24,000 nt of DNA from an uncultured Chloroflexia bacterium (lineage in GTDB: Bacteria; Chloroflexota; Ktedonobacteria; Ktedonobacterales; JADMIN01). The position numbers and the translations under genes are program-made. Shown piece by piece: positions 8,098-15,421 of the stretch. The stretch covers positions 11,176 to 35,175 of the forward strand of contig CAWENW010000027.1 in assembly GCA_963810535.1 (NCBI GenBank), given 5' to 3'. Below the pieces are notes generated by a model. The model saw only the letters and a program-made list of their open reading frames with translations. It was not told where the DNA came from and ran no database searches. Within the stretch, counting starts at the first letter, position 1; each line of letters begins with the position of its first letter.

Positions 8098-10230
8098 GTG
8101 AGTGTAGCCGATTTCACCCGGATCATGACCGCGCTCGACGACTATAGGCGTGATACCGGTCGCCCGACACTGGCGCTGGGTGGCTGGGAATCAGAAGATC
8201 CAGATATCGTTCCACCGCCAAGCCTGGTCGAGGCGCTCCTTCAGATCTCAGCGCGTCTGCACACCTATACCTATATACGCGAGCTGCATAGAGCCAAGAG
8301 CGCGGCGGCACGGGTCCTCTCCTATGGTGTCCGCATCGACGGCAAATTGCCCGAGGCAATGAACGTGGCCATTGTACCCAACAGCACGCAGGCATTGCTA
8401 CTCACGCTGGCGGCGCTCAAATCACGCGGAGTTGCCCACCTAGTGATTGCCGCACCTGGGTACTTCGCCGCTGCCGAAGCTTGCCGCTACCTGGGCATTG
8501 CAAGCACGATCATTCCGGCCGCCGATTTTGTCACCGGCACGTTTGACACAGGCGCGCTGCTAGCGGCCATGCGTAGCCCAGGAGCGGCGCTCCTGCTCAC
8601 CAATCCCGCCTACTCCATCGGCGTGGAGTACAGCTGGGAGAATCTACACTCCCTCATTTCCGCACTTCCAGAGGAAGCGTTCGTGATACTGGACGAGACG
8701 CGCCTCGGCCTGAACTGGAACGATGAAGCGCCGTGGTATGGCGCGGACTATCCCGACCGGATCGCCGTCATCCGGTCCCCGAGCAAGATCTTCTTCATAA
8801 ACGGACAGAAGACCAGTATCATTCTCGGCTCATCTCCCCTCATCCAATCGATCGAGCAAATCAGTGAATCGCTGCTGGGCTCGGTCGCCGGCGTGTCGGA
8901 GCAGGTCGCAGAGGCCTACCTGCAGTGCTGGGAGCAGTGGGTAAATGAGCTGCGCGCGGGGGAGGTTGGTCCGTTTCGGCAATGGCGGCGGCAGATCATC
9001 GCCACGCTCGCCCGCAACCAGCGAATGGTCGCACGGCATCTCCAGCCGAGGGGATTTCTCCTCTCCCCGGTGAACTCGGGTCCCTACCTGCTTGCCGGTA
9101 CCAGACTCACTCACAGCCATTCTTTAGACAGTTATGCGGCTGCGAGAGAAGAGGGGGTCTTACTCATGGACTCATCCTACTTTCTACACCAACACAGCAA
9201 TTGGTACGGGTTCCGAGTAAATCTATCCGGCGAGGAGCGGCACCTTGCACAGGCTATCTCGCGGATTTTCCCAAAGGAGCAGAAATCAAGCATGGCACAC
9301 TCCCTAACACCCCAGCAGCAGGCACCCCGCTCGCGTCCACGTACTCACGCGACCGAGCCGTTGCCCCTGCCGAGTGAGCTGTATATCGAAAGCACTACCC
9401 GGTGCAATGAATTCTGCGATCAATGCCCGCGCACCCATCTGGGGCGTGAGGGCGACCGCGACGTTACTCTGGCCGAGGTGCAACGCATCGTAGAACAGTT
9501 TCCCAAGCTCGATCGAGTAGTGCTGCACGGACTTGGTGAGCCCTTGCTCAACACCGAGCTGCCAAAGATCATCACCTACCTGCGCTCGCGAGGTGTCTAT
9601 ACGCTCTTCAACTCGAATGCATTGCTGCTCAATGAGCGGAGAGGCCGCAGCCTCATAGAGTCAGGGCTGTGCGAGCTACGTGTCTCCTTTGACGGCGCCA
9701 CTCCCGCAACGTACGCGCGGGTGCGTGGCGTCAACCAGAAAGCATTGCCACTCATCGTAGGCAACCTGGCCAAATTCTCCGCCTTGAAAACAGAGCTTGG
9801 AGCGGAGCTTCCAAAGGTCTCGCTCTGGTTCACCGCCATGCGAGAGAATTTCCGTGAATTGCCCGAAGTGGTTGAGATTGCGTCCAGGACAGGTGTGCCT
9901 GAGGTCTACGTTCAACGCTTCATCTACTTCGGCAAGGGTCTGGCAACTGAGGATCAGACGCTCTTCCACTCGATACGCCAGGAAGAGCGGGAGACATTGC
10001 TTGCCGCCGAGACACGCTGTCGGGAGCTAGGTATTGCCTTTACCGCCACCGGCGCCACCGAGCCGGCAGCCTACCTTGCTCGGACCTCTGGGATGGAGCT
10101 TCGCCGTGGAAGGGTTGCCAGCGTCCGTACAAGCTCGCCTATATTACCGCCCATGGGAATGTGTACTCCTGTTGTTTTGCGCCCTTTACCCCGGGCCGTT
10201 AAGCCAGAAGTGGCTGGGGAACGCGTTTGA
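8098..10230 (+). CDS. class I/II PLP aminotransferase-like domain fused in frame to a radical SAM domain; C-terminus disrupted (see 10104-10344)
   Basis: GTG 8098 follows TGAGG at 5-nt spacing. The N-terminal ~395 aa carry an SxSK PLP-lysine motif (RSPSKIFFINGQK). From residue ~430 there is a radical SAM core with CNEFCDQC (CX3CX2C, nt 9403-9426) and GEPLL. The frame-1 tail after ~10085 (RTSGMELRRGRV...) is non-homologous-looking. Confidence 0.8.
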   Translation: MSVADFTRIMTALDDYRRDTGRPTLALGGWESEDPDIVPPPSLVEALLQISARLHTYTYIRELHRAKSAAARVLSYGVRIDGKLPEAMNVAIVPNSTQALLLTLAALKSRGVAHLVIAAPGYFAAAEACRYLGIASTIIPAADFVTGTFDTGALLAAMRSPGAALLLTNPAYSIGVEYSWENLHSLISALPEEAFVILDETRLGLNWNDEAPWYGADYPDRIAVIRSPSKIFFINGQKTSIILGSSPLIQSIEQISESLLGSVAGVSEQVAEAYLQCWEQWVNELRAGEVGPFRQWRRQIIATLARNQRMVARHLQPRGFLLSPVNSGPYLLAGTRLTHSHSLDSYAAAREEGVLLMDSSYFLHQHSNWYGFRVNLSGEERHLAQAISRIFPKEQKSSMAHSLTPQQQAPRSRPRTHATEPLPLPSELYIESTTRCNEFCDQCPRTHLGREGDRDVTLAEVQRIVEQFPKLDRVVLHGLGEPLLNTELPKIITYLRSRGVYTLFNSNALLLNERRGRSLIESGLCELRVSFDGATPATYARVRGVNQKALPLIVGNLAKFSALKTELGAELPKVSLWFTAMRENFRELPEVVEIASRTGVPEVYVQRFIYFGKGLATEDQTLFHSIRQEERETLLAAETRCRELGIAFTATGATEPAAYLARTSGMELRRGRVASVRTSSPILPPMGMCTPVVLRPLPRAVKPEVAGERV

Positions 10231-10455: not shown

Positions 10456-11037
10456 ATGCCTCCGTCCGATACCTCATACCAGACTCGTGACGTTAGAATT
10501 TTCGAAGAGTGGTCGCGTACCTACGAGGGCTCGTGGATGCAGAAACGGCTCTTCAATCGCGTCCACCAGGCTGTGCTCGACCTGGCGGCACCCCTTCCGC
10601 CACCCGCAGAAGTGCTCGACGTGGGCTGTGGAACTGGACGACTGTTGCGAGCCGCCGGGATGCGTTGGCCGGAGGCGCAGCTGATCGGAGTCGATCCCGC
10701 ACAAGGGATGGTGGATGCGGCGCAGCGGCTGACCCCCGCCGCCACGTTTCGCCGGGGCCTCGCCGAGTCGCTCCCTCTGCCCGACGCCAGTGTGGACCTG
10801 GTTGTGAGCACCCTTTCCTCTCATCACTGGCGTGATCCGGGTAAGGGAGTAGGCGAGATTGCCCGCGTGCTGCGCCCTGGGGGCCACTTTATTCTGGCTG
10901 ATTTCGGCTTGCCATGGTCCTGGCATGGGTCACATTCCATGGCCGGGGCATGCCCGCCGCCGCCAGGCAACGACTTTTCGGCGCGGCAGGCCTGCGAATT
11001 GAGCGGCAGCAGACGGTTGTCTATCCGTTTATCGTGA
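10456..11037 (+). CDS. class I SAM-dependent methyltransferase; 3' end frameshifted, likely native stop at 11058-11060
   Basis: ATG 10456 is preceded by AGGGAGGGG. Motif I is VLDVGCGTGRL, and the post-I and later motifs are LIGVDP and LRPGGHFILADF. After ~10910 the homologous-looking tail (VLAWVTFHGRGMPAAARQRLFGAAGLRIERQQTVVYPFIVITLASRS) is in the -1 frame. Confidence 0.8.
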   Translation: MPPSDTSYQTRDVRIFEEWSRTYEGSWMQKRLFNRVHQAVLDLAAPLPPPAEVLDVGCGTGRLLRAAGMRWPEAQLIGVDPAQGMVDAAQRLTPAATFRRGLAESLPLPDASVDLVVSTLSSHHWRDPGKGVGEIARVLRPGGHFILADFGLPWSWHGSHSMAGACPPPPGNDFSARQACELSGSRRLSIRLS

Positions 11038-11100
11038 TAACGCTGGCGTCTCGTTCCTAAGAAGCCAGCGACATGATTCAGTACGCCGCCACTCTGAAGG

Positions 11101-11131
11101 GATTAGATAATTGATACTATGTATCAATATC
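11101..11131. promoter_or_regulatory. AT-rich promoter-like segment containing a Fur-box-like palindrome GATAATTGATAC-TAT-GTATCAATATC
   Basis: There is a perfect 7-bp inverted repeat, TTGATAC (11111-11117) and GTATCAA (11121-11127). It extends to ~12-bp arms with one bulged base. The left arm resembles the GATAAT-type Fur box. This is the only strongly AT-rich patch in the gap. Confidence 0.4.
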
Positions 11132-11134
11132 TGG

Positions 11135-11545
11135 ACTGGACAAGACAAGCTAGGACCTGTTGGAGATAGGTGCTAGACTGTACTGAAGCGAATGCAATAG
11201 AACGACATAGCGCAAGAATACGAGACGAAGGATGTCAGGTACCCTATCCCCTGGAAGGGGATGGGCTTGTGAGGGAACGATACCCAAGCACGCCTGAACC
11301 TGACCAGACTCAGTCCGAACTCGGCAACGAGTTCTCGGACTACGATACCGGCGAATGTATAGGCACCTGTGGGTGACGTTCCAGCCCACAGCTCTGCGGC
11401 TCGTAGTTAAACTGACAGACAGGGTTCGAGTCCGTGCTGCGAGCACCTGAAACCGCTGGATATCCTTGTCGAGGAAAACATTACCTGGACGCCGCACGGC
11501 AACCAGAGGCCCGAGAAGGGCAGAAACGGTGTGCGCTATGACCTA
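11135..11545 (+). ncRNA. candidate IscB omega-RNA (HEARO-type RNA); boundaries approximate
   Basis: The 477-nt gap directly upstream of iscB has no credible ORF. It holds several stable local hairpins: 11242-11265, 11313-11340 (GCAA tetraloop), 11367-11391 and 11434-11446. IscB omega-RNAs are known to lie immediately 5' of the ORF and to overlap its start. Confidence 0.55.
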
Positions 11546-12866
11546 CATCTTTGTCGTCGATACCCAGAAACGTCCGCTTACCCCCGTTCACCCAGGAGCC
11601 GCCCGGCGATTACTTACGAAGGGCAAAGCGGCGGTGTGGCGACGCTACCCCTTCGCCATCATTCTCAAGCAGGCCAAACCCGACGAGGCTGCTCCGCCCC
11701 TTCGTCTCAAGATTGATCCCGGCTCGAAGACGACGGGACTGGCCATAGTTCACGACCTAACCGGGCAGGTTCCCTTTGCGGCAGAACTGACCCATCGCGG
11801 CCAGCAGGTCTGCGAGAGGTTGACGGCGCGTCGGGCGGCTCGCCAGGCTCGTCGCGCGCGTCATACACGCTATCGGCCGGCACGCTCCAATAACCGGATC
11901 AGAGCCGAAGGGTGGCTGGCCCCCTCGCTGGAGAGTCGCGTGCAGAACGTGCTCACCTGGGTACACCGGCTGGCACGCCTCTGCCCCATCACCGCTCTCT
12001 CCCTGGAACTCGTCAGGTTTGATACCCACGTGATGCAGAATCCGCAGATCAGCGGAGTGGAGTATCAGCAGGGCGAGCTGGCAGGCTATGAAGTGCGAGA
12101 ATACCTGTTGGAGAAGTGGCATCGGACCTGTGCGTACTGTGGAGCGACCAGCGTCCCGCTGCAGGTTGAGCATATTGTGCCCAGAAGCCGCGGCGGGTCT
12201 CATCGCATCAGTAATCTGACGCTCGCCTGTGCACGCTGCAATCTCGCCAAAGGCACACAGACAGCCGCCGAGTTTGGCCATCCTCAGGTCCAGGCACAAG
12301 CCAACCTGCCGTTGAACGATGCTGCGGCGGTCAACACGACTCGGTGGGTGCTGTATCAGCGTCTTCGGAGCCTGGGTCTCCCGCTGGAAACGGCAAGCGG
12401 TGGACGCACCAAGTGGAATCGCATCCAGCGGAACCTCCCCAAAACACATTGGCTGGATGCAACTTGCGTGGGGGCCAGCACCCCTGTCACACTTGGCGTT
12501 GCCTCCGTGCGGGCACTGCTCATCACGGCCAGGGGACGCGAGTCGCGGCAGATGTGCCTGATGGATACATATGGCTTCCCCAGGACATCGGCCAAAGGCC
12601 AACGACGGATCAAGGGGTTTGTGACGGGTGATCTGGTGCACGCCGTGGTAAGGTCTGGGACAAAGGTTGGGACCTATACCGGGAGGGTCGCCGTCCGTGC
12701 CTCCGGTTCGTTCAATATCACCACCCGTGGTGTGACCGTTGCGGGCATCAACCACCGGAATTGTCATGCCATCCAGCAGGCTGATGGCTATTCATATGAG
12801 AAAGGGGAACGCGCTTTCCTCCCGATCCCCCAAAAGGGAAGGGTCTCCAGCGCGAATGTTCTATGA
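11538..12866 (+). CDS. iscB: IscB RNA-guided endonuclease (OMEGA system; RuvC-HNH, Cas9 ancestor)
   Basis: 442 aa from ATG 11538. Domain order: PLMP-like N-terminus (RPLTPVHPGAARRLLTKGKA), RuvC-I (KIDPGSKTTGLAIV), Arg-rich bridge helix, RuvC-II (LSLELVRFD), HNH (CAYCG...VEHIVPRSRGG...NLTLACARCNLAKG), RuvC-III (THWLDATC), and a C-terminal beta domain (GDLV...GRVAVRASGSFNI). ORF-track TTG 11466 is probably an over-extension into the RNA gene. Confidence 0.9.
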   Translation: MTYIFVVDTQKRPLTPVHPGAARRLLTKGKAAVWRRYPFAIILKQAKPDEAAPPLRLKIDPGSKTTGLAIVHDLTGQVPFAAELTHRGQQVCERLTARRAARQARRARHTRYRPARSNNRIRAEGWLAPSLESRVQNVLTWVHRLARLCPITALSLELVRFDTHVMQNPQISGVEYQQGELAGYEVREYLLEKWHRTCAYCGATSVPLQVEHIVPRSRGGSHRISNLTLACARCNLAKGTQTAAEFGHPQVQAQANLPLNDAAAVNTTRWVLYQRLRSLGLPLETASGGRTKWNRIQRNLPKTHWLDATCVGASTPVTLGVASVRALLITARGRESRQMCLMDTYGFPRTSAKGQRRIKGFVTGDLVHAVVRSGTKVGTYTGRVAVRASGSFNITTRGVTVAGINHRNCHAIQQADGYSYEKGERAFLPIPQKGRVSSANVL

Positions 12867-13492
12867 CGTTTACACATGGCGTCAGCGCCCAGGAAATGAT
12901 TACCGCACTGGAGCAAGCCGGCTTACGCTCCACCCGCCCTCGTAACGCCATCATTGAACAGATCGCTGAGTGGGCCGCCGAAGGGAAAGATTTCAGCAGC
13001 GAGGAGCTCTGGCACGCCACCCAGCAGCATGCCCCCTGGATTGGCCGCGCCACCGCGTTCCGTACGGTTGAGCTGCTCAATGCTCTAGGCTTTCTCGATA
13101 GGGTGACCTTTGCCGACGGCAGCGAACGCTACCATTCGGTGCATCCGGGCACGCACCACCACCATCTGACATGCGCCGAGTGCCACCGGGTGGTCGCCAT
13201 CGACGCCTGCCTGCCGAACCAACTCCTTGAGAAGGTCGAGCGCCAGTCGGGATTCGCCATCTCCGGGCACCGGGTGGAGCTCTTCGGACGATGTCCCAGC
13301 TGCCAGGAGCGAGAACTCCCAAGACGGGAATCAAGTTGGTCTTCGCGGGTCGATTCCACACGGTGTCCCAGTACCGCGCCTGCCACCACGTCGATGAAAA
13401 GACCGGCATCTAGACAGCGACAATTGATGCTAACTGCTGTGGCGAGTTATCCGCGTCCGGCGCGGAAATCGTCACAATGCCGGACTTGTTGA
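12863..13492 (+). CDS. Fur-family metalloregulator (Fur/Zur/PerR type) with an unusual ~55-aa C-terminal tail
   Basis: Winged-helix part: LRSTRPRNAIIEQI...ATAFRTVELLNALGFL. Metal sites: HPGTHHHHLTCAECHRVV and GRCPSCQ. ATG 12863 overlaps the iscB stop (ATGA); the alternative start is ATG 12896. The conserved domain ends near 13310. Confidence 0.8.
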   Translation: MTFTHGVSAQEMITALEQAGLRSTRPRNAIIEQIAEWAAEGKDFSSEELWHATQQHAPWIGRATAFRTVELLNALGFLDRVTFADGSERYHSVHPGTHHHHLTCAECHRVVAIDACLPNQLLEKVERQSGFAISGHRVELFGRCPSCQERELPRRESSWSSRVDSTRCPSTAPATTSMKRPASRQRQLMLTAVASYPRPARKSSQCRTC

Positions 13493-14290
13493 TGCCACTG
13501 ACAGTCACTGTCTCATGCGACCCGCCGTCTAAGTCGCCCGCTGCGGGAGAGACCGAATAGCCATTCACATCGATCGCGCTCCAGCAAGAGCGGAGAACCG
13601 CCCATGTTGGCCACCTAAATGGAGAGCTGGCTCCCAGGACAGAGCGAGTAGAAGGGGACGCTTGTAGGTGAGACAGACAGATCGCGGGATTGGCGTTGCA
13701 GTGGGAGCAGGGGTAGGCGCAGGCGCCGCGGTACTGACCGGAGTGGAGCCTCCAGCTGTGGGAGAGCCACTTGGGAGTGGAGGCGCTGTGGGTACCGCTG
13801 TCTGGCCGGGACCAGCCGTCGCCACGATCTGGCCTGGACCGGCACCTGGCGTTCCACCGGTTTGGCCCGAACCAGCACCTGACGTGGACGAAGCACCGTT
13901 GGTGGGAGCCACGCCAGACGAGGAGCTGGAGTGGAAGGAATTGGCGTTGGCATTGGATGAGGCAAACACGGAGAAGCCACCACGCTGGGAGAGCGCCAGG
14001 ATCCCTGCACCCGCCAGCACTAGCGCCACCGCGAGTATGAGGCTAAGCACCCATACAAATGGCCATTGGCTCCGCGTTCGCGCGGCCGCCGGATGTCGCT
14101 GCGCCTGCCACTGAGAGGTGGGAGCCACCTGCGCCAGCCCAGCCCGGGTAGCATTGTTGGAGATCGCACCATCTTCTGGGTCCGGAAGAGACTGTGAAGC
14201 ATCGACCCTCGCACCGCAGATGGGACAGTGGCCGATGTAAAATTGCGCTGCAGTCAGACTAGCACCACATTCACCGCAGTAGCGCGACAT
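13410..14290 (-). pseudogene. zinc-ribbon / single-TM / low-complexity / Ig-like-domain protein, decayed paralog of 14570..15421
   Basis: The ORF 13565..14290 encodes the zinc ribbon (CGECG...CPICG), a TM helix and an S/T/P/G-rich linker. The C-terminal domain continues in other frames down to TAG 13410-13412 and aligns without gaps to the paralog. This requires two 1-nt insertions (~13681-13690 and 13584) and reading through an in-frame TAG at 13615-13617. Confidence 0.7.
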
Positions 14291-14569: not shown

Positions 14570-15421
14570 CTATAGCGTGCAGGTGATAGTGACTTGCTGC
14601 GGCGAGTTGCTGGCTTTGTATCCGGATACGGTAACGATACCAGACTGGTCGATATTGCTTACCGTCACTGTTACCTGGAGTCCCGGGTCGATGGTTCCGA
14701 TCTTCGGCGAAATCGCATATTTGGTGACATTGGCCGACGCGTTCCAGATTAGGGCTGCGCCGCCGCTATTAGAAACGGTAAAACTTATCTTGGAACCGTA
14801 GCAGACCGCTATGGGCTTTGGCATGGTAGGCGTAACCACCAGGTAAGGCGGAGCTGGCGTCGCCGTAGGAGAGCTGGCAGGGGACGGAGCTGGCGAACCG
14901 ATAGGTGTGACGTCTGTCGACGTTGCAGAGACTATGGCCGAAGGTGAAGTAGTGGCCTGGCCGGGTAGTGAGATAGGCGTGCTGAGGGGCGCGCCCCCTC
15001 CGAAGGTGGAGGAGATGCTCGGACTCGGCGTCGCACCTGAAGACGCAGCCAACGCGGTGTTCGTTGCGCTGCCCAGCACCGTTCCGTCCTGGCCGCCGGT
15101 TCCTCCAGCAAAGTGCGCTAAGGCCAGGACACTGGCGCAGGCACACAGGAGTGCGACCGCGACCACCAGACTGATGATCCAGAGAGGGCGCCCCCTTTGC
15201 TTGGCGCTGCGGGCCGGAGTTGCCGGTGGCTGATACGGCTGGGTAGGAGTGCCGCTCGCTCCAAATGCGAAGTGGGTAGTCGCATCAAGGTGCAGACCCA
15301 AGTCTGGACTCACTTCCGAAGTTGACGCGTCAACTTCGGCGCCGCAGACTGGGCAGCGTCCGCTTGCTACCGCCTCGACGCTCAGGCTGTTTCCGCAGTG
15401 GCCGCAGTAGCGCACCATCAT
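14570..15421 (-). CDS. zinc-ribbon / single-TM / low-complexity / C-terminal Ig-like-domain membrane protein
   Basis: 283 aa. It has YCGHCG...CPVCG, the TM helix LWIISLVVAVALLCACASVLAL, an S/T/P/A-rich linker, and then a beta-rich domain (ISFTVSNSGGAALIWNA...VTVTVSN...SPQQVTITCTL). GGGGGTGAG lies upstream of the ATG. Confidence 0.8.
   Translation of the reverse strand: MMVRYCGHCGNSLSVEAVASGRCPVCGAEVDASTSEVSPDLGLHLDATTHFAFGASGTPTQPYQPPATPARSAKQRGRPLWIISLVVAVALLCACASVLALAHFAGGTGGQDGTVLGSATNTALAASSGATPSPSISSTFGGGAPLSTPISLPGQATTSPSAIVSATSTDVTPIGSPAPSPASSPTATPAPPYLVVTPTMPKPIAVCYGSKISFTVSNSGGAALIWNASANVTKYAISPKIGTIDPGLQVTVTVSNIDQSGIVTVSGYKASNSPQQVTITCTL

Follow-up and report, generated by a model that had tools for sequence, protein, structure and literature searches.

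A predicted IscB omega-RNA of the HEARO family in a mobile element inserted at a fur start codon in a Chloroflexota genome

The window (the whole 24,000-nucleotide stretch of DNA analysed, from an uncultured Chloroflexia bacterium) very probably contains a 1,629-bp non-autonomous IS200/IS605-type element with genes for both an omega-RNA (Rfam HEARO) and an intact IscB. The single Rfam match above gathering score in the whole window was to HEARO (RF02033), at 120.8 bits relative to a gathering score of 83 (E = 7.8e-25), and covered model positions 1-211 of 211. This is the outcome of a covariance-model check proposed in an earlier sequence-only reading, in which iscB was preceded immediately by a HEARO-type omega-RNA. 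When positions 10800-13600 were scanned permissively against Rfam, the only addition to HEARO was a chance-level match to M23 (22 bits; gathering score 41). The match ends at position 11484, and a co-oriented ORF carrying RRXRR/RuvC and HNH domains begins at 11538 (or 11529); in each of the full-length related iscB loci that were fetched, a HEARO match likewise lies just 5' of the ORF. Further, positions 11200-11545 are more stable than dinucleotide shuffles of the same sequence (z = -4.26), none of the 100 shuffles being equally stable. Judged from its sequence, the structured stretch is an ordinary member of the HEARO / IscB omega-RNA family, in which all of the defining features that sequence can test are present.

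Fold and conservation of the omega-RNA

From an alignment of 12 homologues, running from the first scaffold base to the iscB start codon, we derived a consensus with RNAalifold. Because a first MAFFT alignment misplaced the 5' domain of the window, upstream regions were compared through paralogs and through an alignment anchored at the Rfam match coordinates. The consensus recovered the HEARO architecture (Table 1): 95% of cells were paired, and 34 of 49 pairs showed compensatory changes on both sides. None of 500 shuffles reached any of the five measures, and slid controls were 30-39% paired. At alignment columns 157/168 and 191/221 the consensus contains invariant U:G pairs, which would be A-C mismatches on the other strand, indicating that the + strand transcript is the folded molecule.

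Table 1. Features of the element, its RNA and its junctions (window positions unless a locus is named)
Feature	Position	Strand	Basis or remarks
Mobile element (omega-RNA + iscB)	11234..12862	+	1,629 bp; limits from paralogs and the uninterrupted fur orthologue L027
Predicted omega-RNA guide, ATACGAGACGAAGGAT	11218..11233	+	position from scaffold boundary 11234
Omega-RNA scaffold per Rfam HEARO RF02033	11234..11484	+	covariance-model match
5' domain, guide-adaptor-like	11234..11304	+	outer stem 11234-11240/11298-11304 (7 pairs, 97.6% paired, 4 compensatory) around two hairpins
Helix 1, also RE-side subterminal hairpin	11242..11265	+	Rfam consensus; 9 bp, one bulged U
Nexus-like stem	11307-11309/11468-11470	+	consensus on 12 homologues
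Helix 2, GCAA-capped hairpin	11312..11341	+	family pairing 11312-11317/11336-11341 (97.1% paired, 4/6 pairs compensatory)
Long-range central stem, closing the RNA core	11344-11353/11454-11464	+	10 pairs, 93.2% paired, 5 compensatory
Helix 3 hairpin	11363-11374/11384-11397	+	11 pairs, 97-99% paired, 9 compensatory
Family hairpin	11399-11407/11436-11444	+	92.6% paired, 7/9 pairs compensatory
Nexus-type pseudoknot	11379-11382/11473-11476	+	loop UUCC of helix 3 with GGAA; pairing in relatives 97.9%, 3/4 pairs compensatory; slid controls 30-58%
3' terminal hairpin	11485..11506	+	beyond the Rfam model; stem 11485-11487/11504-11506
iscB CDS, 442 aa	11538..12866	+	ATG 11538; public gene call uses GTG 11529
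IscB motifs	PLTP 13-16; RuvC D60, E157, H304, D307; HNH H212, N235 (residues)		aligned with solved IscBs, OgeuIscB among them
LE-side subterminal hairpin, CCCGATCCCC-CAAAA-GGGAAGGG	12821..12843	+	direct repeat of 11242-11265
ATGA, target-adjacent motif / transposon target site	12863..12866	+	at the junction of all copies
Junction ATGA sites, window, L009, L025, L028	window 12863-12866; L009 4326-4329; L025 4326-4329; L028 2790-2793
Junction ATGA sites, L004/L005, L001/L003, L011	L004/L005 4329-4332; L001/L003 4336-4339; L011 3326-3329

Three of the four helices drawn in the sequence-only reading hold up. Helix 1 (11242-11265, 9 bp with a 1-nt bulge) is found both in the sequence and in the HEARO consensus, and helix 2 (drawn at 11313-11340, as 11 bp with a 2-nt bulge, capped by a GCAA loop) and helix 3 (11367-11391, CTGTGGG/CCCACAG) are not only in the consensus but covary among relatives. 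The helix 2 hairpin is about 12 nt longer in the window than in most relatives. The remaining helix (11434-11446, GTGCT/AGCAC) could form locally but is only 75% paired among relatives; as a family pairing it was rejected, being mutually exclusive with the longer covarying family hairpin at 11399-11407/11436-11444. Direct 7-mer repeats in the region, also remarked on earlier, are real but occur at chance level (5 repeated pairs, compared with 6.3 +/- 3.2 in shuffles), and the copy of GCACCTG reported at 11442 in fact starts at 11443.

The pseudoknot between the helix 3 loop and the 3' side of the core has an equivalent in OgeuIscB, where the 4-bp nexus pseudoknot is essential and its disruption abolishes activity (PMC9640706). 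Downstream structural elements are absent from RF02033 (Meers et al.). In the window, the 3' terminal hairpin consists of CUGG/CCAG with an inner GCC-GCAC-GGC hairpin, whose loop is GCAA in paralog L009, and each of the 3 pairs tested covaries. The covarying structure stops at about 11506, approximately 31 nt 5' of the iscB ATG, leaving the earlier expectation that the RNA overlaps the start of the ORF unsupported. In some relatives (L004 about 2930-2985 and L012 about 1120-1160; alignment A6 columns 233-287) the omega-RNA is enlarged by some 25-55 nt inserted after the last hairpin and before the central stem's 3' strand, which appears to be a tolerated site of scaffold expansion.

The RNA has diverged less among paralogs than the gene beside it. 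Between the window and L009, the Rfam-modelled RNA shows 4 differences in 251 nt, compared with about 5% in the coding part, and across paralogs L009 and L025 the omega-RNA part (11234-11537) has about threefold fewer differences per base than the iscB part (11538-12862). One of the changes in L009, G11439A, turns a U:G pair into U:A. The low divergence and the nature of this change are consistent with selection on the RNA.

The mobile element and its IscB

The 90% protein cluster of the window IscB has six members, including those at L008, L009, L025 and L026. L008 is the same locus as the window in a sibling assembly, while the other copies of the element lie upstream of a pyrR-like gene (L009) and of a kaiC-like gene (L025 and L026). 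From GTCAGG (11234) to ...GTTCT (12862), the window shares 94-95% identity with L009 and L025; outside these limits it is unrelated to them, and in all copies ATGA follows ...GTTCT. The paralogs of a more distant element, L001-L003, are similarly conserved from HEARO position 1 to ...TTTTG|ATGA. Comparing the upstream regions of related iscB genes, as the sequence-only reading had advised, thus places the onset of conservation at the scaffold edge, 11234.

Both ends of the element carry subterminal hairpins on the same strand, with no terminal inverted repeats, as in IS200/IS605-type elements. The hairpins (11242-11265 and 12821-12846) form the top direct-repeat family within the element (D1, 26 nt, 73% identical), and their feet lie 8 nt from the element end on the RE side and 19 nt on the LE side. 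The target is fixed: ATGA was present at all 11 junctions examined, and comparison of the window flanks with L027, an uninterrupted fur locus, revealed no target-site duplication. No match to Y1_Tnp (TnpA) was found among the window ORFs scanned, and we therefore regard the element as non-autonomous; approximately 98.5% of iscB genes lack a nearby tnpA (Meers et al.). Because the copies differ by 5-6%, transposition was not very recent.

Several further observations concern the copies and their surroundings. At the kaiC-side insertion, an intact 442-aa IscB in one assembly (L025 3001-4329) contrasts with a shortened 340-aa product in another (L026 3001-4023); aligned with each other, these elements show 10 mismatches and 4 gap columns, indicating that one copy is decaying. 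At the LE-side junction of L012 (2570-2600), GATTGATGATTGATGATTGATGATTGA repeats the terminal TTGATGA, made up of the element end and ATGA, in short tandem. All 44 contigs of P0010 sample one and the same insertion site. Ordinary neighbours were noted for two of the elements: the one at the kaiC site has a cobalamin riboswitch (78.7 bits; L025 1289-1527, - strand) about 1.2 kb upstream, and the one in L002 has a tRNA gene (L002 2222-2296, - strand) about 450 nt upstream.

The predicted iscB ORF is intact, full length and with all catalytic motifs. Pfam identified RRXRR (2e-66) and HNH (5e-13) domains in it, and its product matched solved IscB structures (E = 1e-28 to 1e-37) with the catalytic motifs aligned; the roles assigned to the residues in Table 1 are taken from PMC9640706. 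Outside its own 90% cluster, the nearest relatives are about 72% identical, and several of these, from Ktedonobacterales MAGs, are named 'RNA-guided endonuclease IscB'. Exact-sequence look-ups with the window IscB (ATG and TTG starts), Fur, P0001 and P0125 yielded no match.

We weighed other explanations of the region against an omega-RNA. The conserved structure might be a cis-regulatory leader of iscB or fur, either riboswitch-like or an attenuator 5' untranslated region, as it sits in the 5' untranslated region of iscB, with the fur leader before it and the fur coding sequence after it, and small hairpins lie just 5' of the start codon (11485-11520). However, the structure moves with the element to unrelated genes (pyrR-like, kaiC-like and glycosyltransferase), it begins at the very base where the transposon does, and the sequence just 5' of it changes between sites, as is characteristic of a guide. 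Homologous RNAs have been shown experimentally to be guide scaffolds (Meers et al.; PMC9640706), and the region matches no other Rfam family; we consider a regulatory leader highly improbable. We give an even smaller probability to the view that conservation reflects only DNA-level end signals for TnpA (the RE hairpin and the cleavage site), with no functional RNA. The first ~32 nt do contain an RE-type subterminal hairpin that is repeated directly at the LE, but TnpA ends would explain a few tens of nucleotides, not approximately 270 nt of covarying helices and a pseudoknot; nor do they account for the strand-specificity of the invariant U:G pairs or for an Rfam model matched along its full length.

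A decaying relic, in which RNA and protein are still recognisable and function has been lost, would fit the lack of a TnpA match among the window ORFs scanned, the 5-6% divergence of the paralogs and the truncated 340-aa IscB of the L026 copy. This reading is unlikely in view of the full-length window ORF with all its catalytic motifs, an RNA that scores as well as those of its relatives, the stronger conservation of the RNA than of the coding sequence among paralogs, and the pairing-preserving change at 11439 in L009. There is next to no chance that the region instead encodes small proteins. The two ORFs reported in the gap (11150-11497, - strand, and 11170-11376, + strand) do exist, with lengths of 115 and 68 aa, but, as the sequence-only reading had judged, they are not protein-like: neither has a Pfam match, on which ground a small-protein reading was dismissed, and the substitution pattern of the region is that of RNA helices. 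Since both straddle the boundary between host and element at 11234, they are not conserved units in the paralogs.

The interrupted fur locus and the predicted guide

In the host fur gene, sequence comparison puts the insertion precisely between ribosome-binding site and start codon. Orthologues of fur with 70-87% identity all begin at the Met encoded by the ATG at 12863, and the uninterrupted locus L027 is collinear with the window after 11233 is joined to 12863, with no duplicated bases; the ATGA is therefore host sequence. Within it, ATG is the authentic fur start codon and TGA the iscB stop codon: the iscB frame ends ...AAT GTT CT|A TGA, and its stop codon is thus supplied by the target site. 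This ATGA is the target site of the element and, by the logic of these systems, its putative TAM. The window fur leader and L027 share the motifs TGCTAGACTGTAC and TAGCGCAAGAA, followed by ATGAC. In the window the two motifs lie at 11171-11183 and 11207-11224, as TGCTAGACTGTAC and TAGCGCAAGAA(T/G)AC(G/A)AGA, and are kept in L027, while the remaining intergenic region has diverged.

These comparisons correct the gene map, in that the apparent intergenic gap is part host fur leader (11135-11233) and part mobile element. The feature proposed earlier to start at 11135 instead begins at about 11218, counting the guide, or at 11234, counting the scaffold, and 11135-11217 belongs to the host leader. 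The lower GC content noted for the gap belongs to a tract at 11038-11233 (GC 0.46) that is host leader, whereas the RNA at 11234-11537 has a GC content of 0.58. The earlier placement of the guide within 11135-11180 was wrong by about 50-100 nt, as both paralogs and orthologue put the boundary of scaffold and transposon at 11234.

With the scaffold beginning at 11234, the predicted guide is the adjoining 5' flank (Table 1), the guide length of about 16-17 nt being borrowed from OgeuIscB (PMC9640706). It is host DNA immediately outside the element, contains the Shine-Dalgarno-like GAAGGA of fur and is unique in the window. The sequence directly 5' of the scaffold differs between the copies in the window, L009 and L025, and likewise among L001-L003.

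Other features of the neighbourhood were recorded alongside. Upstream of the fur leader, at 11104-11130, lies a palindrome resembling a Fur-family operator, GATAATTGATAC-TAT-GTATCAATATC; in L008 (about 2577-2601) the same palindrome is a perfect 11-3-11 with one A fewer, and half-sites of the ATATCAAT type occur upstream of the orthologous fur in L027. As fur in L027 adjoins a divergent znuABC-like operon, the regulator may be Zur-like. The fur ORF encodes 209 aa in the window and 165 aa in L008, the two products being 99% identical to residue 151 and divergent thereafter, which suggests an indel or frameshift near the 3' end (window about 13315-13492), either real or an assembly error. Farther downstream is a pair of paralogous ORFs, 13565-14290 and 14570-15421 (both - strand), that start with M(S/MV)RYCG(E/H)CG...CP(I/V)CGA, a zinc-ribbon-like sequence, and continue with a transmembrane-like segment and tails rich in Ser, Thr, Pro and Ala; Pfam returned no match for either. 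Upstream, 8098-10230 (+ strand) is a single 710-aa ORF in which a class I/II aminotransferase domain is fused to a radical SAM domain; the gene call in L008 gives this ORF 749 aa and adds SPASM.

By analogy with characterised systems, we propose that transcription would begin in the upstream host DNA, probably at the fur promoter, and enter the element. The predicted transcript would comprise a 5' segment of about 16 nt from the host flank (11218-11233) and a scaffold of about 273 nt (11234-~11506), whose fold would combine a 5' adaptor domain with two long-range stems (nexus and central), three hairpins, a terminal hairpin and a 4-bp pseudoknot. IscB would bind the scaffold, and the guide would direct RuvC/HNH cleavage of DNA that reads guide-match and then ATGA. 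Such a target may be either (i) the empty donor joint left after excision by TnpA acting in trans, or (ii) an unoccupied sister allele; repair of the break from the occupied copy would keep or spread the element. The sequence analysis itself shows family membership, a covarying RNA structure, the limits of the element, the target motif and intact catalytic motifs; for expression, RNP formation, guide length, cleavage and homing, the scheme draws on what has been published for related systems. Scans near the region for sigma-70-type promoters and intrinsic terminators, which were not tuned to Chloroflexota, found none, and because the consensus scan found no promoter the fur promoter is a speculative source of the transcript. 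A candidate promoter for the guide-bearing transcript is TGCTAGACT (11171-11179), a conserved motif of the leader that is similar to an extended -10 element.

Known systems and the placement of elements at start codons

Compared with the Rfam description of HEARO (RF02033), the window RNA shares a full-length model match, a co-oriented position 5' of iscB, the same covarying helices, and a 5' edge at the transposon end with a variable guide upstream. It differs in having two longer hairpins, one at 11312-11341 and the other the second of the inner hairpins in the 5' domain, so that the scaffold is about 273 nt long; the scaffold of OgeuIscB is 206 nt, and the family averages about 242 bp upstream of the ORF (PMC9640706; Meers et al.). 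Its terminal hairpin also lies outside the Rfam model, as Meers et al. noted for the family. With the OgeuIscB RNP (PDB 7XHT / 7UTN) the window protein shares a PLMP-like motif, the split RuvC D/E/H/D and the HNH histidine, all aligned, and the RNA shares a guide-adaptor domain, nexus and central stems, the 4-bp nexus pseudoknot and terminal hairpin(s). The protein match is nonetheless distant (E = 2e-28, with partial coverage and the C-terminal TAM-interacting part unaligned), OgeuIscB has 496 aa as opposed to 442, and its TAM is NWRRNA / NNRR rather than the putative ATGA of the window.

A TAM that fits the junction ATGA is known from the IscB element of Geobacillus stearothermophilus, where TTCAT, read 5' of the LE, corresponds to ATGAA on the iscB strand (Meers et al.). 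In that work the omega-RNA is bounded by the RE, transcription starts outside the element, and donor-joint cleavage drives retention (Meers et al.). ISGst5 (Meers et al. 2023) and the window element are alike in being non-autonomous and of IS200/IS605 type, in having an omega-RNA bounded by the RE, in a TAM that fits ATGA, in a guide that needs outside transcription and in orientation with the host gene. Conversely, they belong to different phyla, the window element being from Chloroflexota with Ktedonobacterales-like relatives, and in the window the iscB frame runs through the LE and takes its stop codon from the target site. The omega-RNA of TnpB (reRNA; IS200/IS605 and IS607) also combines a transposon-end scaffold with a flank-derived guide that targets the donor joint beside the TnpA target motif, but it lies at or after the 3' end of tnpB, has a 3' guide and a 5' TAM, is transcribed from within the element, and differs in fold and Rfam family. 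The omega-RNA described here is an already known kind, well supported, and is rated as such because its departures from characterised members are at the level of lineage only.

A pattern in where these elements insert is offered as a lead, based on a small sample. At 9 of 11 independent insertion sites in the clade, the junction ATG opens a co-oriented ORF of at least 100 aa, while of all 563 ATGA sites in these flanks only 17% open such an ORF (binomial p = 5e-6). The sample comprises the independent sites at which the LE side could be placed, three of them by motif similarity only. Besides fur, the genes opened encode, among others, a GT4 glycosyltransferase whose N-terminus is canonical, an M20-like hydrolase and a kaiC-like ATPase. 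The iscB stop codon comes from the host ATGA wholly in the window and partly in L004/L005, and a Shine-Dalgarno-like purine run falls within the 16-nt guide region in the window, L009, L025 and L028. The orientation bias of IscB elements and their need for outside transcription have been described (Meers et al.); the start-codon pattern is not described in Meers et al., and a targeted literature search returned nothing relevant. We put forward tentatively, at somewhat less than even chances, that placement between ribosome-binding site and ATG of co-oriented host genes is functional, in that a host promoter would provide the guide transcript, the ribosome-binding site and spacer would serve as guide, the target would donate the stop codon, and ATGA would couple translation.

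For annotation, the locus adds a complete, apparently intact IscB-omega-RNA unit from a lineage of Chloroflexota, in which the scaffold is defined, the guide is predicted and ATGA is the putative TAM, and it could be one more candidate for a compact RNA-guided nuclease. For the host, the fur coding sequence now lies 1.6 kb from its leader and putative operator, with the IscB element between them. Should the proposed placement be functional, the ATGA stop/start overlap would couple the host gene to iscB, so that the insertion is tolerated, and expression of the omega-RNA and IscB would here be under the Fur-family-regulated fur promoter. If general, such placement would explain in concrete terms both why IscB elements show the orientation bias already published and how their insertions remain harmless.
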